Source: an uncultured Actinomycetota bacterium
Lineage (GTDB): Bacteria > Actinomycetota > Actinomycetes > CAVWCF01
Length of the DNA stretch: 64,000 nucleotides
Assembly: GCA_963753435.1 (NCBI GenBank)
Contig: CAVWCF010000001.1
Coordinates: 1,248,001 to 1,312,000 of the forward strand
Direction: 5' to 3'
The notes below the pieces were generated by a model. The model did no database searches. It was given only the letters and a program-made list of their open reading frames with translations, and was not told where the DNA came from. Below, in pieces: positions 54,097-64,000 of the stretch (its first letter is position 1; each line of letters opens with the position of its first letter). The position numbers and the translations under genes were made by a program.

Positions 54097-54170
<74 letters not shown>

Positions 54171-54193
54171 CGATGTCGAGTAGCGCAGCGATC

Positions 54194-54586
54194 TCAATCG
54201 CTCGCGACTTCGCGCAGCATCTTTCCTAGCTGGGCATAGCGCTGCGCGCCGAGGCGCTCGGCGTAGCGCTCCTCGACCCGGGCCACGGCCTCCTCGAACC
54301 GAGCGTTCAACTCATTCCCACGCCCCGACCTTCGGACCAGCCAGGCCCGCCCGTCTGCGGGATCGGGCGTCCGCTTGATCAAACCCTCAGCTTCCAGCCC
54401 TTCGATCGCTTCGGCCATCGCCTGCTTGCTGATGCCGGCGCGATCAGCAAGGTCCTGCTGCCGGGCACCGGCAGCAGGGATCAGTTGGAGCAACCGGATC
54501 CGCCGCAGCCCCAGATGCGCCAGTTCCTCGGGTAGGACAGCGCCAAGCTCAACAGCGGTACGCGCCTGAACAGCCTCAAGAAGCAC
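54194..54586 (-). CDS. MarR family transcriptional regulator (start uncertain; the reading frame extends to about 54650)
   Basis: [31 protein letters not shown] winged-helix signature. Confidence 0.9.
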
Positions 54587-54629
54587 CAGCAGATGGTCTG
54601 GCGATGCAGGGTCGATGTCGAACTCCCAG

Positions 54630-54670
54630 TGGTCAATCTTCTTGACTAAAATGGTCAGGTAGGTTGACGA
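54630..54670. promoter_or_regulatory. Tandem palindromic operators GTCAA-N5-TTGAC and GTCAG-N5-TTGAC between the divergent marR and SDR-RCCR genes
   Basis: Perfect inverted repeat at 54632-54646 and a one-mismatch copy at 54654-54668, flanking TAAAAT (54647-54652). Confidence 0.75.
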
Positions 54671-54700
54671 TACTCCGGGATCGCGAAGAAGGGGAACGGC

Positions 54701-56344
54701 ATGCGGGTACTTATCGTCGGTTGTGGGCTGGTCGGCAAGGAGTTGGCTCAGCAACTCCGGGCGGATGGCCACCACGTCATCGGCACCACCACGACTCCCG
54801 GCAAGGTCACCGCGCTGCAGCAGGTGTGCGACGACGTTGCCGTGCTCACCGGCGCCGACACCGCGGCCGTGCACGCCGCCGCCAAGGACGTCGACGCGAT
54901 CGTGGTAACCGCCGGTCCCGCCGCCGCCCAGGCCATGACGGTCGAGCAACGGCAGAAGACCTACCGCCGTGTCCTTGTCGACACCGCCGAGTCGGTGTCG
55001 AGTGTGCCCGGCGACCCCTACCTCGTGATGCTGTCATCCCTGTCGGTCTACGGGGACGCGGCCAACCACCTGGACGTCATCGACGAGTCCAGCCCCCTGT
55101 CAGACAGCGAGGACCCAAGCCCGGCCATGTTCCAAGAGGCGGAGCGCACCTACCGCAACGCCGCCGCGGATCGGCTGGCGATCTTCCGCTGCGCCGACAT
55201 CACCGGTGGCGAGGATCCGCCGATCATGGACAAGCTGCGCATGGCCCATCAGGTCTTGGGTGGTTCGGTGCCGTTCCACGACGAGGCGCTCTTCTACCGC
55301 GTCCACATGCTCGATGTGGTCGGAGCCGTGAAGTACGCCCTCGACCGCCGCTTCACCGGCACCTACAACCTCACCCACGCCGAGGTGCCGCCGCCCATGC
55401 AGCCGTACTTCGATGCCCTGTGCGCCCTGGACGGCCTGCCGCCGCTGCAGTACCGCAACGAGTTGACGGCACCTACCAAGCCGGTATCCGTGGACGCCCT
55501 GCTGGCCACTGGCTTCACCCTCGCCCACACGCAGGTTGAGGAGATGCCGGCCGCGGACGCGGTCGCACCGCCGAGCGCACTCACCGGCATCGACCGGACG
55601 GGCCGAGAGATGGTCACGGCCGTTCTCGATCGACTCATCTCGGAACTGGAACTCACTGAGGAAACATCTGCGGACGGCCAGCCCGTGCTGCCGATCACCG
55701 CAGTCGGTGGCGTCAAGGACGGGCAGCGAATCGGCGAGTTCCGGGTGTTCTCCCGCCCGGGTGGTCCCCGCGTCGTCTACAGCGCGCTCTCAATCGACGA
55801 CTTCGGCATGGACACCCACCAGGTCTACGCATTCACCGGCGCGGACAGTGCGGTACCGCACCTGTTCGTCGACACCGCGATCTCGCCCAACACCGATGGC
55901 ACGTTCCACTTCGGCCTGGACCTGGTTGCGCGGGTCGATCTGGCCGCTTCCTTCGACTACACGCAGGCCGTGTACGGAGAACTCACCGACGTCCGGGGCG
56001 ACGCCCTAGCCACACCCGGCGTCCTGCCGGTCCCGTCGCTCGGCCCGTTGCAGTGGTCGCTGCGCTCACCCTGGATGCTCGCAGCCATCGCCGCGCCCGG
56101 TGACCTGAAAGCGCTCGCTCCCGCGGTGGATGCCTACGTTGACCAGTGGCTGAACCTGGTCAAGTCGGGGCTGCCGGAGGCCGCGGCCGCCGACGCGCAG
56201 TGGCAGAACGTCGCTGAGCGCGACCGACGCAATCGCGCCGCAATCTTCTCCCCCGCGGCCAACCCGGTCTGGTTCCTGCTGGACCGGCTGGTGGGCGCCG
56301 AGCAGTCGGCCGCCATGCGGGCGCTGCTTACCGCGCAGGACTGA
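54701..56344 (+). CDS. Fusion of an atypical NAD(P)-binding SDR/epimerase domain and a red chlorophyll catabolite reductase (RCCR)/ferredoxin-dependent bilin reductase-like domain
   Basis: N-terminus GCGLVG..GTTT, SS.SVYG, FRCADITG. C-terminus AFT..DSAVPH..VD, F.LDL..RVDL....DY...VY, SPW, Y..QWL and ERD..NR parallels remembered RCCR blocks. Confidence 0.72.
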   Translation: MRVLIVGCGLVGKELAQQLRADGHHVIGTTTTPGKVTALQQVCDDVAVLTGADTAAVHAAAKDVDAIVVTAGPAAAQAMTVEQRQKTYRRVLVDTAESVSSVPGDPYLVMLSSLSVYGDAANHLDVIDESSPLSDSEDPSPAMFQEAERTYRNAAADRLAIFRCADITGGEDPPIMDKLRMAHQVLGGSVPFHDEALFYRVHMLDVVGAVKYALDRRFTGTYNLTHAEVPPPMQPYFDALCALDGLPPLQYRNELTAPTKPVSVDALLATGFTLAHTQVEEMPAADAVAPPSALTGIDRTGREMVTAVLDRLISELELTEETSADGQPVLPITAVGGVKDGQRIGEFRVFSRPGGPRVVYSALSIDDFGMDTHQVYAFTGADSAVPHLFVDTAISPNTDGTFHFGLDLVARVDLAASFDYTQAVYGELTDVRGDALATPGVLPVPSLGPLQWSLRSPWMLAAIAAPGDLKALAPAVDAYVDQWLNLVKSGLPEAAAADAQWQNVAERDRRNRAAIFSPAANPVWFLLDRLVGAEQSAAMRALLTAQD

Positions 56345-56345
56345 A

Positions 56346-57215
56346 GTGCGGCGCGGACCCGCTGACGGAGACTGGGTCGCAAGCCCACTACGGGACAACT
56401 GGTACCAGTCCAGTTCCTATTGGGCCTCGACGTTCGGCCTCGTCACCACCGTGGACGAGGACGGCCAGACCAACGTTGCTCCGTACCAACTGTCGTTCCC
56501 GTTCGAAGTGATCGGCGGGCGCGCGGTGCTGTTGATATCGCGCCCGGACTCAAACACGGCGCGCAACCTGCGCCGTACCGGCGTGTGCGCCATCAACTAC
56601 GTGGAGGCCAAGCGCAAGGAGCTCAAGCGCATCGTCGCTCTCGGCTTCCCTGGTCAGACAACGGCGGAGAAGAGCCCAGACAACCCGTACTCACTGACCG
56701 GCAGCCCAACTCCCGGTCGGTCGCCCGACGGCCGGCGGTTCCCCCATCTGCTCCAAGAGGCGTTCCAGGTATACGAGTGCACGTGGGACACCGAACAGCC
56801 GCTGCACGCCGACCAACCGGCGCCGGCCTACTTCGTGCTGCGGCTGGACGGGATCCTGCTTCGGGAGCGGTGGGCCAAGAACCTGGAGGACGGGGGCCGG
56901 GCAATGCCCCGGCTGCCAATCACGTACGGGTTCCGCGGGGGCACCAGATTCTGGTTCGCCAAGGTGCGCAAGCCGTTCTGGATCGACACCCCCACCGATC
57001 GTGGGCCCAAAGAGGAGGCGATCCTCTACGAGGCCAACCGAATCGACCCGGACGTCCGGTTCACCCGGGAGGCGTGCCAGCAGTTGACGGGAGTGCCGCG
57101 ACCGTTTCTGAAGATGGCGCTGAAAGGCATCGTCAAGAAGGCCAAGGAACGTGGGCTGACCGAGGTCGACGTCGACTTCGTCCGCGAAGTCGACGAGCAG
57201 CGCCGGGCCGGCTGA
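56346..57215 (+). CDS. Flavin-reductase-like (split barrel) domain fused to a C-terminal PCP_red (BchB/ChlB C-terminal)-like three-helix domain
   Basis: LVTTVDE.G.TNVAPY, SNTA.NL..TG...INY and YEC. C-terminus FT.EA...L..VP.PFLK.AL..I...A.E.G..EV..D.V. Confidence 0.72.
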   Translation: MRRGPADGDWVASPLRDNWYQSSSYWASTFGLVTTVDEDGQTNVAPYQLSFPFEVIGGRAVLLISRPDSNTARNLRRTGVCAINYVEAKRKELKRIVALGFPGQTTAEKSPDNPYSLTGSPTPGRSPDGRRFPHLLQEAFQVYECTWDTEQPLHADQPAPAYFVLRLDGILLRERWAKNLEDGGRAMPRLPITYGFRGGTRFWFAKVRKPFWIDTPTDRGPKEEAILYEANRIDPDVRFTREACQQLTGVPRPFLKMALKGIVKKAKERGLTEVDVDFVREVDEQRRAG

Positions 57216-57226
57216 ACTAGAAGCCG

Positions 57227-58645
57227 TCAGCCGGCAGGTCGCCATCTCGATACGGCACAGGTTCCGGTGGCGCTGCGTCGGGCCTGTTGCAGTTCCACCT
57301 CGGCGCCGCTGGCGTCGGCGAGGCTGCGCACGATGGCCAGCCCGAGCCCGGATCCGGTCCGTTCGGACGTGCCGCGCCAGAAGCGGTCGAAGGCATGCGC
57401 CCGCTCCGCCGAGCTCAATCCGGCGCCGGCATCCTCGACCGATACCTCGATCCAGTCACCTGCTCGTTTCAAGCCGACGTGCAGTTCGCTGTCCGGAGGT
57501 GCCGCCTCAAGCGCGTTGTCGAGGTAGTTGTCGAGCACCTGGCCGACGCCATCGGACACCGACCACACCAGCCACGAGCCCGCAGCGTCGGCGGTGTCGG
57601 TGGTGATGGACACACCCCGCTCAGCCGCCAACGCCTCCCAATCGCTGACGCGCTGCCGAACCGCCACGGCCACGTCTACCTGCTCTCGCTCCTGATCACC
57701 GCGGTCGGCGCGGGCCAAGGCGAGGAGTCCTTCGACGAGTCGCTGCATGCGTTCGACGTCACCGGCCATCTGCTCCAGGGCTTGCGCCGACGCCTCCGGG
57801 TCGCGGTCAGCAAGTTCCTGGGCTGTCTCGATCCGCATGCGCAGAGCCGTCAGCGGACTACGCAGCTGATGGGAGGCGTCGCCGGCGAAGTTGCGCTGCG
57901 CGGCCACGACGGTCTCCACCCGTTGGGCCATCGTGTTGAAGGATTGAGCGACGTCGCCGAGTTCACCAATCGCCTGTGGATCAACTCGGGCACCAAGATC
58001 GCCACCGGCAATCGCCTCCGAGGTCTGCCGCAGGCGGCTGAGTGGCTCGGTCACAAGCCGCGCGATCAGAACCGCGATAAACGCTGCCGCCACCAGGGTG
58101 ATGAGGGCAACGACCAGCAGTCCGCGGACCCGTTCGTCGACGGCCTGGTCCACCTCCGCAGCCGGATAGGTGATGCGCACTGTTCCCAAGATGTCCGCGC
58201 CGGAGCGCACCGGAACGGCCACGTAGAGCAGGTCCTCACCGGCAGAGTCGGACGGCCGCTGGCCCGCAACCGCCTCCCCGCTGAGGGCAGCCGCTATCTC
58301 CGGGCGATTGGTGTAGTCCTGCCCCAGGTCGGTGCCATCGGAAGTGACCACCGCAATGCCGGCCGCGTCGGTGACCACCACGCGCGCACCGGTCGCCGTG
58401 GAGTACTCCGACACCACCGAGGTCACCTCGTTCAGCCCTGCGGGGTCGCCACCGCCCAGTACGTCCTCGGCCTGGCCGGCGATTGTGAACGCGTCTCGCT
58501 GCAACCCGGTGACGATCCGATCGCGTTCGACACCACGAAGATGCGACGCAAGCGGGATGTTCTGGACCAACAGCACCGTCGCGGTGAACGCGACCATCAC
58601 TGCCACCAGTACCCATCGAAACGATGCCCGGCGCCAACTGCTCAT
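57227..58645 (-). CDS. Two-component sensor histidine kinase (HAMP, HisKA, HATPase)
   Basis: Two TMs, HAMP domain, DASHQLRSPL, NYLDNA, D.GAG, FDRFWR and GSGLGL. Confidence 0.95.
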   Translation of the reverse strand: MSSWRRASFRWVLVAVMVAFTATVLLVQNIPLASHLRGVERDRIVTGLQRDAFTIAGQAEDVLGGGDPAGLNEVTSVVSEYSTATGARVVVTDAAGIAVVTSDGTDLGQDYTNRPEIAAALSGEAVAGQRPSDSAGEDLLYVAVPVRSGADILGTVRITYPAAEVDQAVDERVRGLLVVALITLVAAAFIAVLIARLVTEPLSRLRQTSEAIAGGDLGARVDPQAIGELGDVAQSFNTMAQRVETVVAAQRNFAGDASHQLRSPLTALRMRIETAQELADRDPEASAQALEQMAGDVERMQRLVEGLLALARADRGDQEREQVDVAVAVRQRVSDWEALAAERGVSITTDTADAAGSWLVWSVSDGVGQVLDNYLDNALEAAPPDSELHVGLKRAGDWIEVSVEDAGAGLSSAERAHAFDRFWRGTSERTGSGLGLAIVRSLADASGAEVELQQARRSATGTCAVSRWRPAG

Positions 58646-59328
58646 TGCGGCGTACCCAACCGAAAGCCGACGCCGCGAACCGCCTCGACCCAGCTCGGAT
58701 CTCCAAGCTTGCGCCGGATGGCTGCCACGTGTGCGTCGACTGTCTTCGTCGGCCCATACCAGTGGGCATCCCAAACGTGTTCCAGGATCTCGGTCCGGCG
58801 CCGCAGCGCACCAGGATCCTCGGCGAGGAAGGCGAGCACCCCGAACTCCTTCGGGGTCATGGCGACTTCGGCGCCGTCGAGGAAGACGCGTTGGGTGCGG
58901 CGGTCGATCGCCAATCGACCCAGCTCCTGTTGTGTCGACTGCTCCGCCAGCGGTGCCGACCCCGACCCTGCCCGCGCCCGTCGGGATACGGCTCGAACCC
59001 GGGCCACGAGTTCCCGCAACCCGAAGGGCTTCACCAGGTAGTCGTCCGCGCCCAGCTCCAGCGCCAACACTCGGTCGAACTCCTCAGACCTGGCGCTGAC
59101 CACCACGATCGGGACGTCCGAAGTCCGCCGGATCTCCCGAGCCACGTCTTGACCGTCAAGGTCGGGTAGGCCCAGATCGAGCAGGACGACATCCGGCGTT
59201 GCAGCTGCGACAGCTGCCAGCCCACTGCGACCGTCCCGAACGTGCTGGACCTCGAAACCGGCCGACTCCAGGCCGGCCACGGTTGACGCCGCAATCCCGG
59301 AGTCGTCCTCCACCAGCAGAACTCGCAC
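58642..59328 (-). CDS. OmpR family response regulator
   Basis: LLVEDD, LLDLGLP, GADDYLVKPF and TVDAHV..IRRKL..VRGVGFR. Confidence 0.95.
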   Translation of the reverse strand: MRVLLVEDDSGIAASTVAGLESAGFEVQHVRDGRSGLAAVAAATPDVVLLDLGLPDLDGQDVAREIRRTSDVPIVVVSARSEEFDRVLALELGADDYLVKPFGLRELVARVRAVSRRARAGSGSAPLAEQSTQQELGRLAIDRRTQRVFLDGAEVAMTPKEFGVLAFLAEDPGALRRRTEILEHVWDAHWYGPTKTVDAHVAAIRRKLGDPSWVEAVRGVGFRLGTPQ

Positions 59329-59501
59329 CCACACATGATGCCGGTGCCATGGGCCCATCCCTGGTCACGGCCGCGGGTTCCTGGGCCGAATCTTGGGAAT
59401 TCTTGGACGTTTCTTGGACAAGCGGCACCCAGAACCACGCCGATGCATCCATAGCGTCGGCACTGCCGATCGAAACACCCGATGGCAGAGGAGGAAGACC
59501 A

Positions 59502-59936
59502 ATGGATGCAAAGCTCGCAGTGGGCCTGTCCGTAGCGGGGATCTTGGTGGCAGCCGGTTCGGCTGCCGCGGTCAACGCCCGGGTCCTTGAGTCACAGGAC
59601 GACTCACCAATCGGAAGCGCCGAGGACTTCGTGGTGCAGACCGATTCACCGTCACCGCAGCCGACGCCGACACTGACCGAGGTCATCACGATCCCGCCCA
59701 GCCCGGCGCCGTCCGCGACACCCAGCACCGCAGCGAGCAGCCAGTCGACTCGTTCAGCGGCCCCAAGTTCTTCACCGAGCCCCAGCGCCAGCGCCTCCGA
59801 CGACGACCGCTACGACGACAACGGCGGCGACCGCGACGACTCCGACTCCGACGACGACAGCTATGACGACAACGGCGGCGACCGCGACGACTCCGATGAC
59901 GACAACTCCGGGTCCGGTTCCCGAGACGACGACTGA
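59502..59936 (+). CDS. Exported low-complexity protein with a Ser/Pro linker and an Asp-rich repeated tail
   Basis: GAGGAGG RBS, signal/TM segment ending SAAA-VN, and two copies of SDDDxYDDNGGDRDDSD. Confidence 0.75.
   Translation: MDAKLAVGLSVAGILVAAGSAAAVNARVLESQDDSPIGSAEDFVVQTDSPSPQPTPTLTEVITIPPSPAPSATPSTAASSQSTRSAAPSSSPSPSASASDDDRYDDNGGDRDDSDSDDDSYDDNGGDRDDSDDDNSGSGSRDDD
59796..59897 (+). repeat. 51-bp in-frame tandem repeat (2 copies)
   Basis: TCCGACGACGAC(C/A)GCTA(C/T)GACGACAACGGCGGCGACCGCGACGACTCCGA(C/T) at 59796-59846 and 59847-59897. Confidence 0.9.
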
Positions 59937-59947
59937 GAAGGACGGAA

Positions 59948-60310
59948 ATGGCACTCGGCAGGTTGAAGTTCCGGCGGCGACCGCACCCGGCGCGCGGCGC
60001 CCGGATCATCACCGGCGGGATGTCTGCGGCGGCAATGATCGCGCTGTCGGGTGCCATGACCAGCCAAGTGGTGGCGACCGCCACAGCGACACAGCCCGTA
60101 TCAGCGGAACTGGAGCCGGCGCCGACAGCGACTCCGGCCGCGCCGGAGCCGCAACACGTGGTCATTGTGCGCAAGTACGTGTACGCGCCGACGCCCTCAG
60201 CTCCGGCAGCCAAACCGTTGCCACAAGCCGTGACCGCACGGGCGGGCGCTCCTGCGCCCGCCAACCCGGCCCCGCCGGCGGACGCCACCTCGGGCGGTTC
60301 CGGTGGCTGA
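59948..60310 (+). CDS. Small membrane-anchored Pro/Ala-rich protein ending in DATSGGS; candidate ApbE flavinylation substrate
   Basis: Basic N-terminus with RRR, one hydrophobic helix, an unstructured linker, and a C-terminal D-x-x-S-G-x-S motif. The stop overlaps the apbE start. Confidence 0.7.
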   Translation: MALGRLKFRRRPHPARGARIITGGMSAAAMIALSGAMTSQVVATATATQPVSAELEPAPTATPAAPEPQHVVIVRKYVYAPTPSAPAAKPLPQAVTARAGAPAPANPAPPADATSGGSGG

Positions 60311-61249
60311 GACGGCACAGACGTCGGTGGTTCGCGCGACGTTCACGCAGGTCATGGGCGGCAGCGCGTCCGCCGTGGTCGTGGGACCGGACTCCGCAGT
60401 CGGTCCCGCGCCAGCGGAGTTGCTCGCCCGGGCCGAAGCCCGGCTGCGGGAACTGGAAAGCAAGTGGACGCGCTTCGATGCCCGCAGCGAGTTGTCCCAA
60501 CTGGCCAGCGCCAATGGTCTCCCGGTCGCGGTCTCAGCGGACACCCGCGCGCTCGTCGCCGCCATGGCCGACGCCTGGGCCATGACCGGGGGCCTCGTTG
60601 ATGCATCCGTCCTGCCCGCAGTCCTGAGCGCCGGGTACACCAGGAGCGCGCTGGACTCCCAAGTGGCCGCCAGCCAGCCGAAGTGGGCGTGGGTGGGGGC
60701 CGATTGGCGGCAGGTCGTGATCGACGAATCCGCCGGCACGGTGACGCTTCCCCCCGGTTTGGCGCCGGACCCCGGCGGTATCGGTAAGGGACTGGCCGCA
60801 GATCTGGTCGTGGCCGAATTGCTGCAGGCCGGCGCAGCGGGCGCGCTCATCGAGATCGGCGGCGATCTGCGCTGTGGCGGCCAGCCGCCTCGGGTAGACG
60901 GATGGTCAGTGGACGTGGACCACCCGCTGCACGACGGATCGTTGACGAACGTGACCATCCATGAAGGTGCCGTCGCCACCTCAAGCATCATGAAGCGGCG
61001 ATTCGTGAACGGATCCGGCAAGCCGAGCCATCACCTCATCGGCCGCGACGGCCAGCCCGCCAACCACGGTCTCGCTACGTGCACCGTGGTCATCGGCACC
61101 GGCGTGTTGGCCGAGACGCTGGCCAAGGTCCCGATGCTGGCCGGTGAGGAGTCCGGCCTAGCGCTGCTGGAGCAATACGAAGTGCCGGCGCTGGTGGTCC
61201 GGCTGGACGGGACTGTTGCCAAGACAACCGGTTGGGGGCGAGTAGGGCG

Positions 61250-61253
<4 letters not shown>
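60303..61253 (+). CDS. apbE: FAD:protein FMN transferase
   Basis: MG, W.RF...SELS, DPGGIGKG..AD, IGGDLR, VATSS and HHLI. No evident signal peptide. Confidence 0.92.

Positions 61254-64000
<2,747 letters not shown>

Follow-up and report, generated by a model that had tools for sequence, protein, structure and literature searches.

What is the function of a bacterial protein in which a single reading frame joins an atypical short-chain dehydrogenase/reductase (SDR) to a domain resembling plant red chlorophyll catabolite reductase (RCCR)? This question is raised by the gene at positions 54,701 to 56,344 (forward strand) of a 64,000-nucleotide stretch, hereafter the window, of contig CAVWCF010000001.1 from an uncultured Actinomycetota bacterium (assembly GCA_963753435.1). 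In this study, we observed that the SDR-RCCR fusion is a real and conserved gene, a new variant built from known folds. As regards its function, we propose tentatively, with a confidence just short of even, that the protein may be a reductase with two sites, which would act after ring opening in a bacterial pathway degrading chlorophyll-type tetrapyrroles. No description of the whole fusion or of its gene cluster was found in the literature searched, most subscription journals being outside our reach.

The fusion gene and its conservation

The gene starts with ATG and encodes 547 amino acids (aa); no internal stop occurs among its 547 codons, in agreement with a sequence-only reading of this DNA, made earlier without database searches, which had placed both domains in one uninterrupted frame. 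The guanine and cytosine content is 0.665, as compared with 0.65-0.72 elsewhere in the window. Out of 60 database matches, 46 were full length (98-100% query coverage, 53-95% identity), with Actinomycetota and Myxococcota as their phyla of origin; where the databases give them names, they are called epimerases. The linker, residues 279-296 (55,535 to 55,588, forward strand), was confirmed as EEMPAADAVAPPSA, and is modelled with a predicted local distance difference test score (pLDDT) of about 81-95. The earlier reading had also considered that a stop codon might turn up there; two public contigs cross the linker without a gap, namely X1, from a DNA run which may be the source sample (54,150-55,824), and X16, from an RNA library of a different study (55,405-55,791), for which six differences are listed, all of them silent. 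The read-level support consists of these assembled contigs and not of raw reads, and contigs from RNA libraries overlap parts of the fusion gene, such coverage not being proof of transcription.

During the locus census, which covered the best 80 of 109 genome loci, the fusion was detected in one frame in 13 (one of them ended by a contig end) and with a frameshift in two, one locus ended early at a contig end, and in 61 the SDR stood without a fused partner. The three remaining loci are split, harboring the same two halves as coupled genes in which the second start overlaps the first stop; the linker is the natural split site in L015, L016 and L029. Homologues that are always two genes, the other outcome entertained beforehand, were not what we found. 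In our trees, which were quick or FastTree runs on hand-picked rows with duplicates and frameshifted loci (L013, L037, L095, L036) left out, the split loci nest inside the actinobacterial fused clade (Shimodaira-Hasegawa-like approximate likelihood ratio test, SH-aLRT, 99), although the approximately unbiased test did not reject fused monophyly (p 0.216); secondary fission is the favoured, though not proven, origin of the split genes. It could be argued that two genes were joined by chance read-through or by an assembly error, as the halves form two genes at three loci and frameshifts occur at two (L013 and L037). Against this stand the 46 full-length relatives from two phyla and the gap-free contigs over the linker, and since the fused frame is conserved, we regard this explanation as already refuted, with a negligible probability left to it. 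Among the relatives of the fusion, frameshifts inside the gene were noticed in L013, L037 and L095/L101.

The assemblies with the fused form belong to Actinomycetota and Myxococcota, with no cultured strain among them; cultured carriers of the unfused form are Nocardioides agri MAH-18, N. dubius JCM 13008, Halioglobus japonicus, Microbulbifer spp. and Actinoplanes italicus DSM 43146. RCCR and the ferredoxin-dependent bilin reductases (FDBRs) are usually single-domain proteins, as had been stated beforehand, and most of the best 150 representatives measure 230-300 aa or are shorter fragments. Two other architectures were noticed among the relatives. In P0285 (642 aa), a Rieske-VanA oxygenase and an RCCR-fold domain with two Asp form one protein, and P0192 (826 aa) carries two RCCR-like domains followed by a C-terminal NAD(P)-binding domain, which makes it an independent RCCR-Rossmann fusion with the domain order reversed relative to the 547-aa protein.

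The C-terminal domain

Residues 297-547 (55,589 to 56,341, forward strand) represent a divergent RCCR/FDBR-fold subfamily that is missed by Pfam: no Pfam family was detected up to E 0.5, NCBIfam gave none either, and at the PF06405 gathering cut-off the domain had no match, a stand-alone sister protein (L082) scoring 19.1 against 24.9. The AlphaFold2 model of the domain (pLDDT 96.4; predicted template modelling score, pTM, 0.93) placed Arabidopsis RCCR on the first nine ranks of the Foldseek list (E 1.1e-10 to 2.9e-8, TM 0.69-0.74), followed by PebA, HY2, PebB, PcyA, PebS, a PcyA-like motor subunit and coproporphyrinogen oxidase. The predicted structure therefore belongs to the RCCR/FDBR superfamily of alpha/beta/alpha sandwich folds and matches plant RCCR best, so that the RCCR-like assignment first made by eye is upheld by the model, and an unrelated fold was not seen. 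A profile built from the fused and split C-terminal domains alone placed RCCR first but weakly (E 0.024); with the stand-alone sister proteins added the value was 5.7e-6, and with all RCCR-like groups 8e-20. PDB sequence searches, with the single protein as well as with a full-length profile, missed RCCR, and the lists from fold searches with the full-length fusion were taken up by SDR matches.

With reference to the acids, Asp391 (55,871 to 55,873, forward strand) lies on the central strand and aligns in two profile alignments with the Glu of the plant PNFVVE block, as had been supposed for the acid of PHLFVD; it is invariant in 35 of 35 fused rows. Asn521 (56,261 to 56,263, forward strand), in the stretch SPAANPVW where the second acid had appeared to be replaced, is likewise invariant (35/35) and occupies a column in which Asp is kept by the remaining groups of bacterial RCCR-like proteins. 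One alignment pairs it with plant Asp291 and another with Asp293, the plant numbering being a 43-residue offset that presumes a full length of 319 aa. We take the position of Asp391 to be that of RCCR Glu154, and both Glu154 and Asp291, the second acid, to be catalytic. The domain thus retains the first acid of RCCR (PF06405) and lacks the second. D371, H373, Q374, H387 and D407 are also invariant in all 35 rows. Fused and unfused domains could not be told apart by net charge, which ranged from -1 to -19 over the groups listed.

FDBRs are reported to work by one-electron radical steps with electrons from ferredoxin, and only the first Asp is described as essential in PebA, in contrast to PebB, which requires both aspartates (PMC6755814). 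PcyX, Pre-1 and Pre-3 are reported to be active although Pro, Ser or Arg stands in place of the second acid (PMC13446030). By analogy, loss of the second acid need not abolish activity, and one acid can suffice.

Compared with plant RCCR/ACD2 (PDB 2zxk, 3aga, 3agb), the C-terminal domain shares the predicted fold and the central-strand acid, and its sister proteins share the Rieske oxygenase partner; it differs in the missing Pfam match, the 16-18% identity, the Asn as second acid, the fusion to an SDR, and a host that is a heterotroph with five RCCR-fold domains. With PebA and the other FDBRs (PF05996) it has in common the fold (2x9o, TM 0.69) and the one-acid pattern of PebA, and it differs from them in a gene context that is catabolic and not one of pigment synthesis. 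Synthesis of a bilin pigment was considered and is disfavoured, because no heme oxygenase was found in the 98% complete source genome (the control was positive in 3/14).

The N-terminal domain

Residues 1-278 (54,701 to 55,534, forward strand) score 33.8 bits against the Pfam Epimerase cut-off of 20.9, harbor a GxGxxG motif, and display a Rossmann fold with the extended C-terminal subdomain of extended SDRs. The best PDB sequence match is 3gpi (E 1.2e-5) and that of the profile search 3ius, both uncharacterised, and all 50 structure matches listed are SDR-fold proteins (Z 23.9-25.6). On reading the sequence, no YxxxK was found. The presumed position of that helix is taken by S140-x-x-x-F144, invariant in 35/35 fused rows, and among the 52 SDR family rows, fused and unfused together, S140 occurs in 52 and F or Y144 in 52; the Rossmann domain without YxxxK described in the sequence-only reading is an extended-SDR fold. 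T29, T31, R84, Y88, S113, S140, E148, R163 and D172 are invariant across the same 52 rows. Because YxxxK is replaced and these pocket residues are invariant, we recognize in the alignments a separate family of atypical SDRs that has a conserved pocket of its own. Strand 2 ends with T29-T32 and K35 (K/R35 in the family) and carries no acid there. Under the general rules for SDRs, threonines together with K/R and without an acid at this place indicate NADP(H), and we infer such a preference for this domain.

As precedents, BLVRB is described as an SDR (PMC10461185), and ChuY is reported to carry out an NADPH-dependent reduction of anaerobilin and to resemble BLVRB (PMC10404700). The likeness lies in the SDR fold, in a domain that lacks the catalytic YxxxK and whose strand 5 ends with a conserved Ser, and in hydride transfer to a bilin, which is proposed for the fusion's SDR domain. 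The difference is that the latter is of the larger extended type, being nearest by sequence to the two PDB entries named above.

Related proteins and genomic context

In a quick tree of 107 RCCR-like domains, four acid patterns can be read. The first acid is missing and the second Asp kept in 59 rows, which include the SDR-adjacent and esterase-adjacent groups; both Asp are kept in 21, many of them encoded directly behind a Rieske gene; the fused group makes up 25, with the first Asp and a second Asn in all 24 rows covering that column; and two rows have Glu and Asp. A tree of 36 rows unites fused and split domains in one clade (SH-aLRT 100) beside the two-Asp, Rieske-adjacent group, and because the clade adjoins that group, the fused domain is placed by its phylogeny as a duplicate of the Rieske-coupled RCCR-like protein and is not the SDR's usual neighbour. 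Fusion carriers harbor 4-9 RCCR-like genes per genome, as against three in three stand-alone-SDR genomes; Nocardioides agri, Microbulbifer and Halioglobus genomes combine three RCCR-like genes with a Rieske gene and a stand-alone SDR. A Polyangiales genome has nine, and three genomes of 1.4-1.7 Mb (G015, G051 and G077; L112-L114) contain 7-8 each, a large share for their size.

A 2026 preprint reports 1,193 prokaryotic structural homologues of RCCR, with Actinomycetota as the largest group (bioRxiv 10.64898/2026.03.19.712979). Its 'SH-RCCR' are, like the proteins examined here, RCCR-like proteins of heterotrophic Actinomycetota and Pseudomonadota, for which chlorophyll a degradation is proposed there; it differs in counting genes per genome, and the words 'fusion' and 'epimerase' do not occur in its main text. 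RCCR relatives also serve as an outgroup in PMC10151467, and the RCCR of plants and algae is treated in PMC9306834.

The SDR and the RCCR fold keep company beyond the fusion. An RCCR-fold gene is present in 38 of the 61 stand-alone-SDR loci, and in all five genomes checked for the other 23 loci two such genes lie elsewhere. In a sample of 351 genomes of the class, RCCR-like genes were found in 10 (2-8 each), the esterase in the same 10 and the SDR in nine of them. The source genome contains five RCCR-fold domains and three SDR-family genes. Its cassette (L082; C1, 1,563-1,575 kb) runs from HMG-CoA-lyase-like, CN-hydrolase, acyltransferase, RCCR-like and esterase genes to Rieske-VanA oxygenase, RCCR-like, unknown, classical SDR, unknown and arylmalonate-decarboxylase-like genes. 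The core order CN-hydrolase / RCCR-like / esterase / Rieske / RCCR-like recurs in L116, L117, L118 and L123, and parts of the cassette were found in Chloroflexota (L041) and Gammaproteobacteria (L039, L040, L045), so that three phyla are represented. Genome G365 has, in a 19 kb stretch of one contig, the fusion together with the Rieske gene and three additional RCCR-like genes. The Pfam Chlorophyllase family (PF07224) matched 12 of 19 esterases (best E 8.8e-8), the PDB matches of the esterases being cutinases and PETases. Frequent cluster neighbours include CoA-transferase III, MmgE/PrpD, MaoC hydratases, a RipC/CitE-like lyase, a LeuCD-like hydratase and a PrpB-like lyase, as well as an amidase, a hydantoinase-like amidohydrolase, ABM proteins and ABC or TonB transport; maleate- and itaconate-type catabolic genes lie near the cassette.

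Several further observations concern these clusters. A second cassette-type oxygenase of the source genome (L091:8567-10212; G000 C1, ~808.6-810.2 kb) is without the Rieske cluster-binding segment, and a divergent RCCR-like gene with two Asp comes immediately after it; the same pair occurs in G001 (L126:8120-9826). A cassette gene of 323 aa (family 49; L082:11207-12175) gave an Atlas lead to DUF3598/BFA1 at 0.87, below the 0.9 level, and no PDB sequence match. The two-domain CN-hydrolase was called in two pieces both in the source genome (L082:17101-18835) and in G001 (L123:14558-16314). At L086 (6309-10539 and 15621-16457), a flavin/Fe-S oxidoreductase pair (Fer4_20 with Pyr_redox; DHODB Fe-S) lies beside an FAD monooxygenase and near a second SDR copy, and could supply low-potential electrons. 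In L011 (6773-7417), L027 (20288-20893) and related Nocardioides loci, Neocarzinostatin-family proteins, large unknown proteins and a sortase accompany the ABC transporter of the cluster, a set which might serve the surface capture of a hydrophobic substrate.

Proposed function and alternative explanations

The order esterase, Rieske oxygenase, RCCR-like protein mirrors chlorophyllase, pheophorbide a oxygenase (PAO) and RCCR of plants, and on this likeness the fusion may be read as an NADPH-dependent SDR joined to an extra, one-acid RCCR-fold site. In such a route, a pheophorbide-like ring would be trimmed and opened by the esterase and the Rieske oxygenase of the cluster, after which the RCCR-like protein encoded next to the Rieske gene, with both acids, would reduce the ring-opened product like the plant PAO/RCCR couple. 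The fused RCCR-fold domain, having only Asp391, would bind the linear tetrapyrrole and reduce it by two electrons in the manner of PebA, drawing on an external carrier of single electrons. The SDR domain, as the pathway's standard SDR, would then add an NADPH hydride to the same or the next intermediate, as BLVRB and ChuY do on bilins, and fusion or translational coupling would hold both sites at 1:1. The amidase, imidase-like, maleate-isomerase-like, hydratase and lyase genes would finally convert the pyrrole pieces for entry into central metabolism. That the two sites may reduce one tetrapyrrole consecutively, as the sequence-only reading had already suggested, is our best guess. Substituted maleimides and maleates are reported as oxidation products of chlorophylls (PMC9620498), and the lower-route genes would suit such compounds.

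We consider that the role of the cluster is probably tetrapyrrole catabolism; for a chlorophyll-derived substrate with the full route, the balance as judged from sequences and models tips slightly to the negative. A number of observations weigh against this proposal. BLVRB and ChuY are absent from the 50 listed structure matches and the 30 sequence matches of the SDR domain, so that the precedent is one of analogy only; the identity of the C-terminal domain to RCCR is low; and Asn521 could equally mark lost activity of the fused clade. The fusion lies ~260 kb away from the cassette in the source genome. The ten genomes with co-occurrence represent five families, and rows of the profiles were taken from several of them, so their count is not independent, and the informative part is the 341 other genomes, in which none of the three genes (RCCR-like, esterase, SDR) was found. 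Among ten cluster Rieske proteins, none matched a PaO family up to E 0.1 and ten matched VanA_C, with SxtDIOX, SxtT and NdmA as best PDB sequence matches; PETase-like, wider than Chlorophyllase, matched all 19 esterases; and the downstream catabolic enzymes fall below NCBIfam equivalog cut-offs or match broad subfamilies only. No Staygreen Mg-dechelatase was found in the source genome, the control being positive nowhere.

Some of these points would fit a cluster that degrades another N-heterocycle, such as a pyrrole natural product or an alkaloid, with an RCCR fold recruited away from tetrapyrroles. Maleate-, amidase- and CoA-type genes occur in many heterocycle pathways, the Rieske proteins are without a PaO match, the esterase is generic, and five cassette genes belong to no family. 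On the other hand, all significant structural matches listed for the C-terminal domain are tetrapyrrole enzymes or their homologues, and the 3-9 paralogues per genome with differing acid patterns fit stepwise work on one large substrate; we hold this explanation to be unlikely. Just as improbable is a variant within the same pathway, in which the fused RCCR-fold domain would only bind, orient or isomerise the tetrapyrrole and the SDR would be the sole redox catalyst. The second acid is Asn in 24/24 fused-clade rows, as against Asp in 21 sister rows and 59 rows of other groups, a change that would matter in an enzyme such as PebB, and the stand-alone-SDR genomes manage with three RCCR-like genes, which makes the fused one look like an add-on. 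Nevertheless, Asp391 and the other five residues invariant in 35/35 rows suggest a catalytic constraint on the pocket, and several FDBRs are active without the second acid.

The least probable of the functional alternatives is that, as the sequence-only reading had also envisaged, the SDR feeds reducing power from NAD(P)H directly to a bilin in the RCCR pocket; the protein would then be a bilin reductase that does not depend on ferredoxin. The whole-chain model (pTM 0.82) suggests a defined domain arrangement, and the split versions keep coupled genes with overlapping start and stop. A small 2Fe-2S ferredoxin encoded as a clearly separate protein was not detected in the genome, in which two weak Fer2 matches lie inside long frames and other ferredoxin types were not searched. 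NAD(P)H is a hydride donor, however, as opposed to the radical one-electron chemistry described for FDBRs (PMC6755814), and Pfam detected no flavin or Fe-S domain between the halves. Moreover, a flavoprotein-like neighbouring gene was not found in 4/5 fusion carriers of the class sample and is adjacent in 3/16 fused loci checked, and the SDR retains its invariant pocket residues when it stands alone, as in 61/80 loci. The idea of direct supply is thereby weakened and appears quite unlikely.

To return to the two-site reductase, in the widest form of this reading the fusion would take part as one enzyme in a complete pathway, encoded in a cluster, for the opening, reduction and mineralisation of chlorophyll-type tetrapyrroles, with 3-9 specialised RCCR-fold paralogues, a Rieske oxygenase, an NADPH-dependent SDR and a maleimide/maleate route, which we would grant somewhat less than an even chance. 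As part of the same reading and with the same reserve, the pathway would be spread over Actinomycetota, Gammaproteobacteria, Chloroflexota and Myxococcota, expanded in actinobacterial genomes of 1.4-1.7 Mb, and found in cultured strains as well.

The local three-gene unit and the rest of the window

In the window, the fusion gene lies between two other genes of a three-gene unit. Upstream and divergent is a MarR-family regulator (54,194 to 54,616, reverse strand), whose start at 54,616 is inferred from an ATC behind GGAG; this codon (54,614-54,616, reverse strand) reads ATC with no X1 difference listed at that base. Two GTCA-N7-TGAC palindromes (54,632-54,646 and 54,654-54,668) are the likely MarR operator. 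No other tandem pair exists in the genome (2.17 Mb), where 35 single boxes were observed against 36 expected, and such boxes lie upstream at L008 and at 7/7 loci that have the MarR gene, being missing in the remaining 11 of 19 loci. A MarR repressor likely controls the fusion unit through these boxes. No sigma-70 promoter or terminator was found. Locus genes were called with a simple script which missed some genes, including the window's MarR.

The downstream gene (56,346 to 57,215, forward strand) encodes a split-barrel flavin-binding-like domain with a weak PCP_red-like tail, all below Pfam cut-offs, and its family has 391 matches. It was found in 4 of the 351 class genomes, all of them RCCR carriers, and in only 1 of the 5 fusion-carrying genomes of that sample; we consequently rejected it as an obligatory electron donor. 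It is an accessory gene, part of the system and not required by the fusion. In L107 (G006 C21) a paralogue with 26% identity to it lies on the other strand at a distance of 1.3 kb. The unit is flanked by a tRNA-Pro(CGG) gene (54,097 to 54,171, forward strand). Further downstream (57,227-61,849) lie a two-component system and then ApbE with a ferric-reductase-like membrane protein, which show no tie to the fusion in other loci.

Biological significance

About one billion tonnes of chlorophyll are reported to be made yearly, with the bacterial disposal of it largely unknown (bioRxiv 10.64898/2026.03.19.712979). The fusion gene is annotated only as an epimerase, a name which hides its RCCR-fold domain, and it leads to a conserved cluster with candidate enzymes for each step. 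Since the unfused form has cultured carriers, the question of a chlorophyll catabolite is directly testable. If the proposal is true, the protein would be a first case of a single chain combining the radical chemistry of FDBRs with the hydride chemistry of SDRs. For the mechanism of FDBRs, a natural series is offered by the four acid patterns. The fusion is of value mainly because it opens the way to a candidate pathway for chlorophyll catabolites in bacteria.

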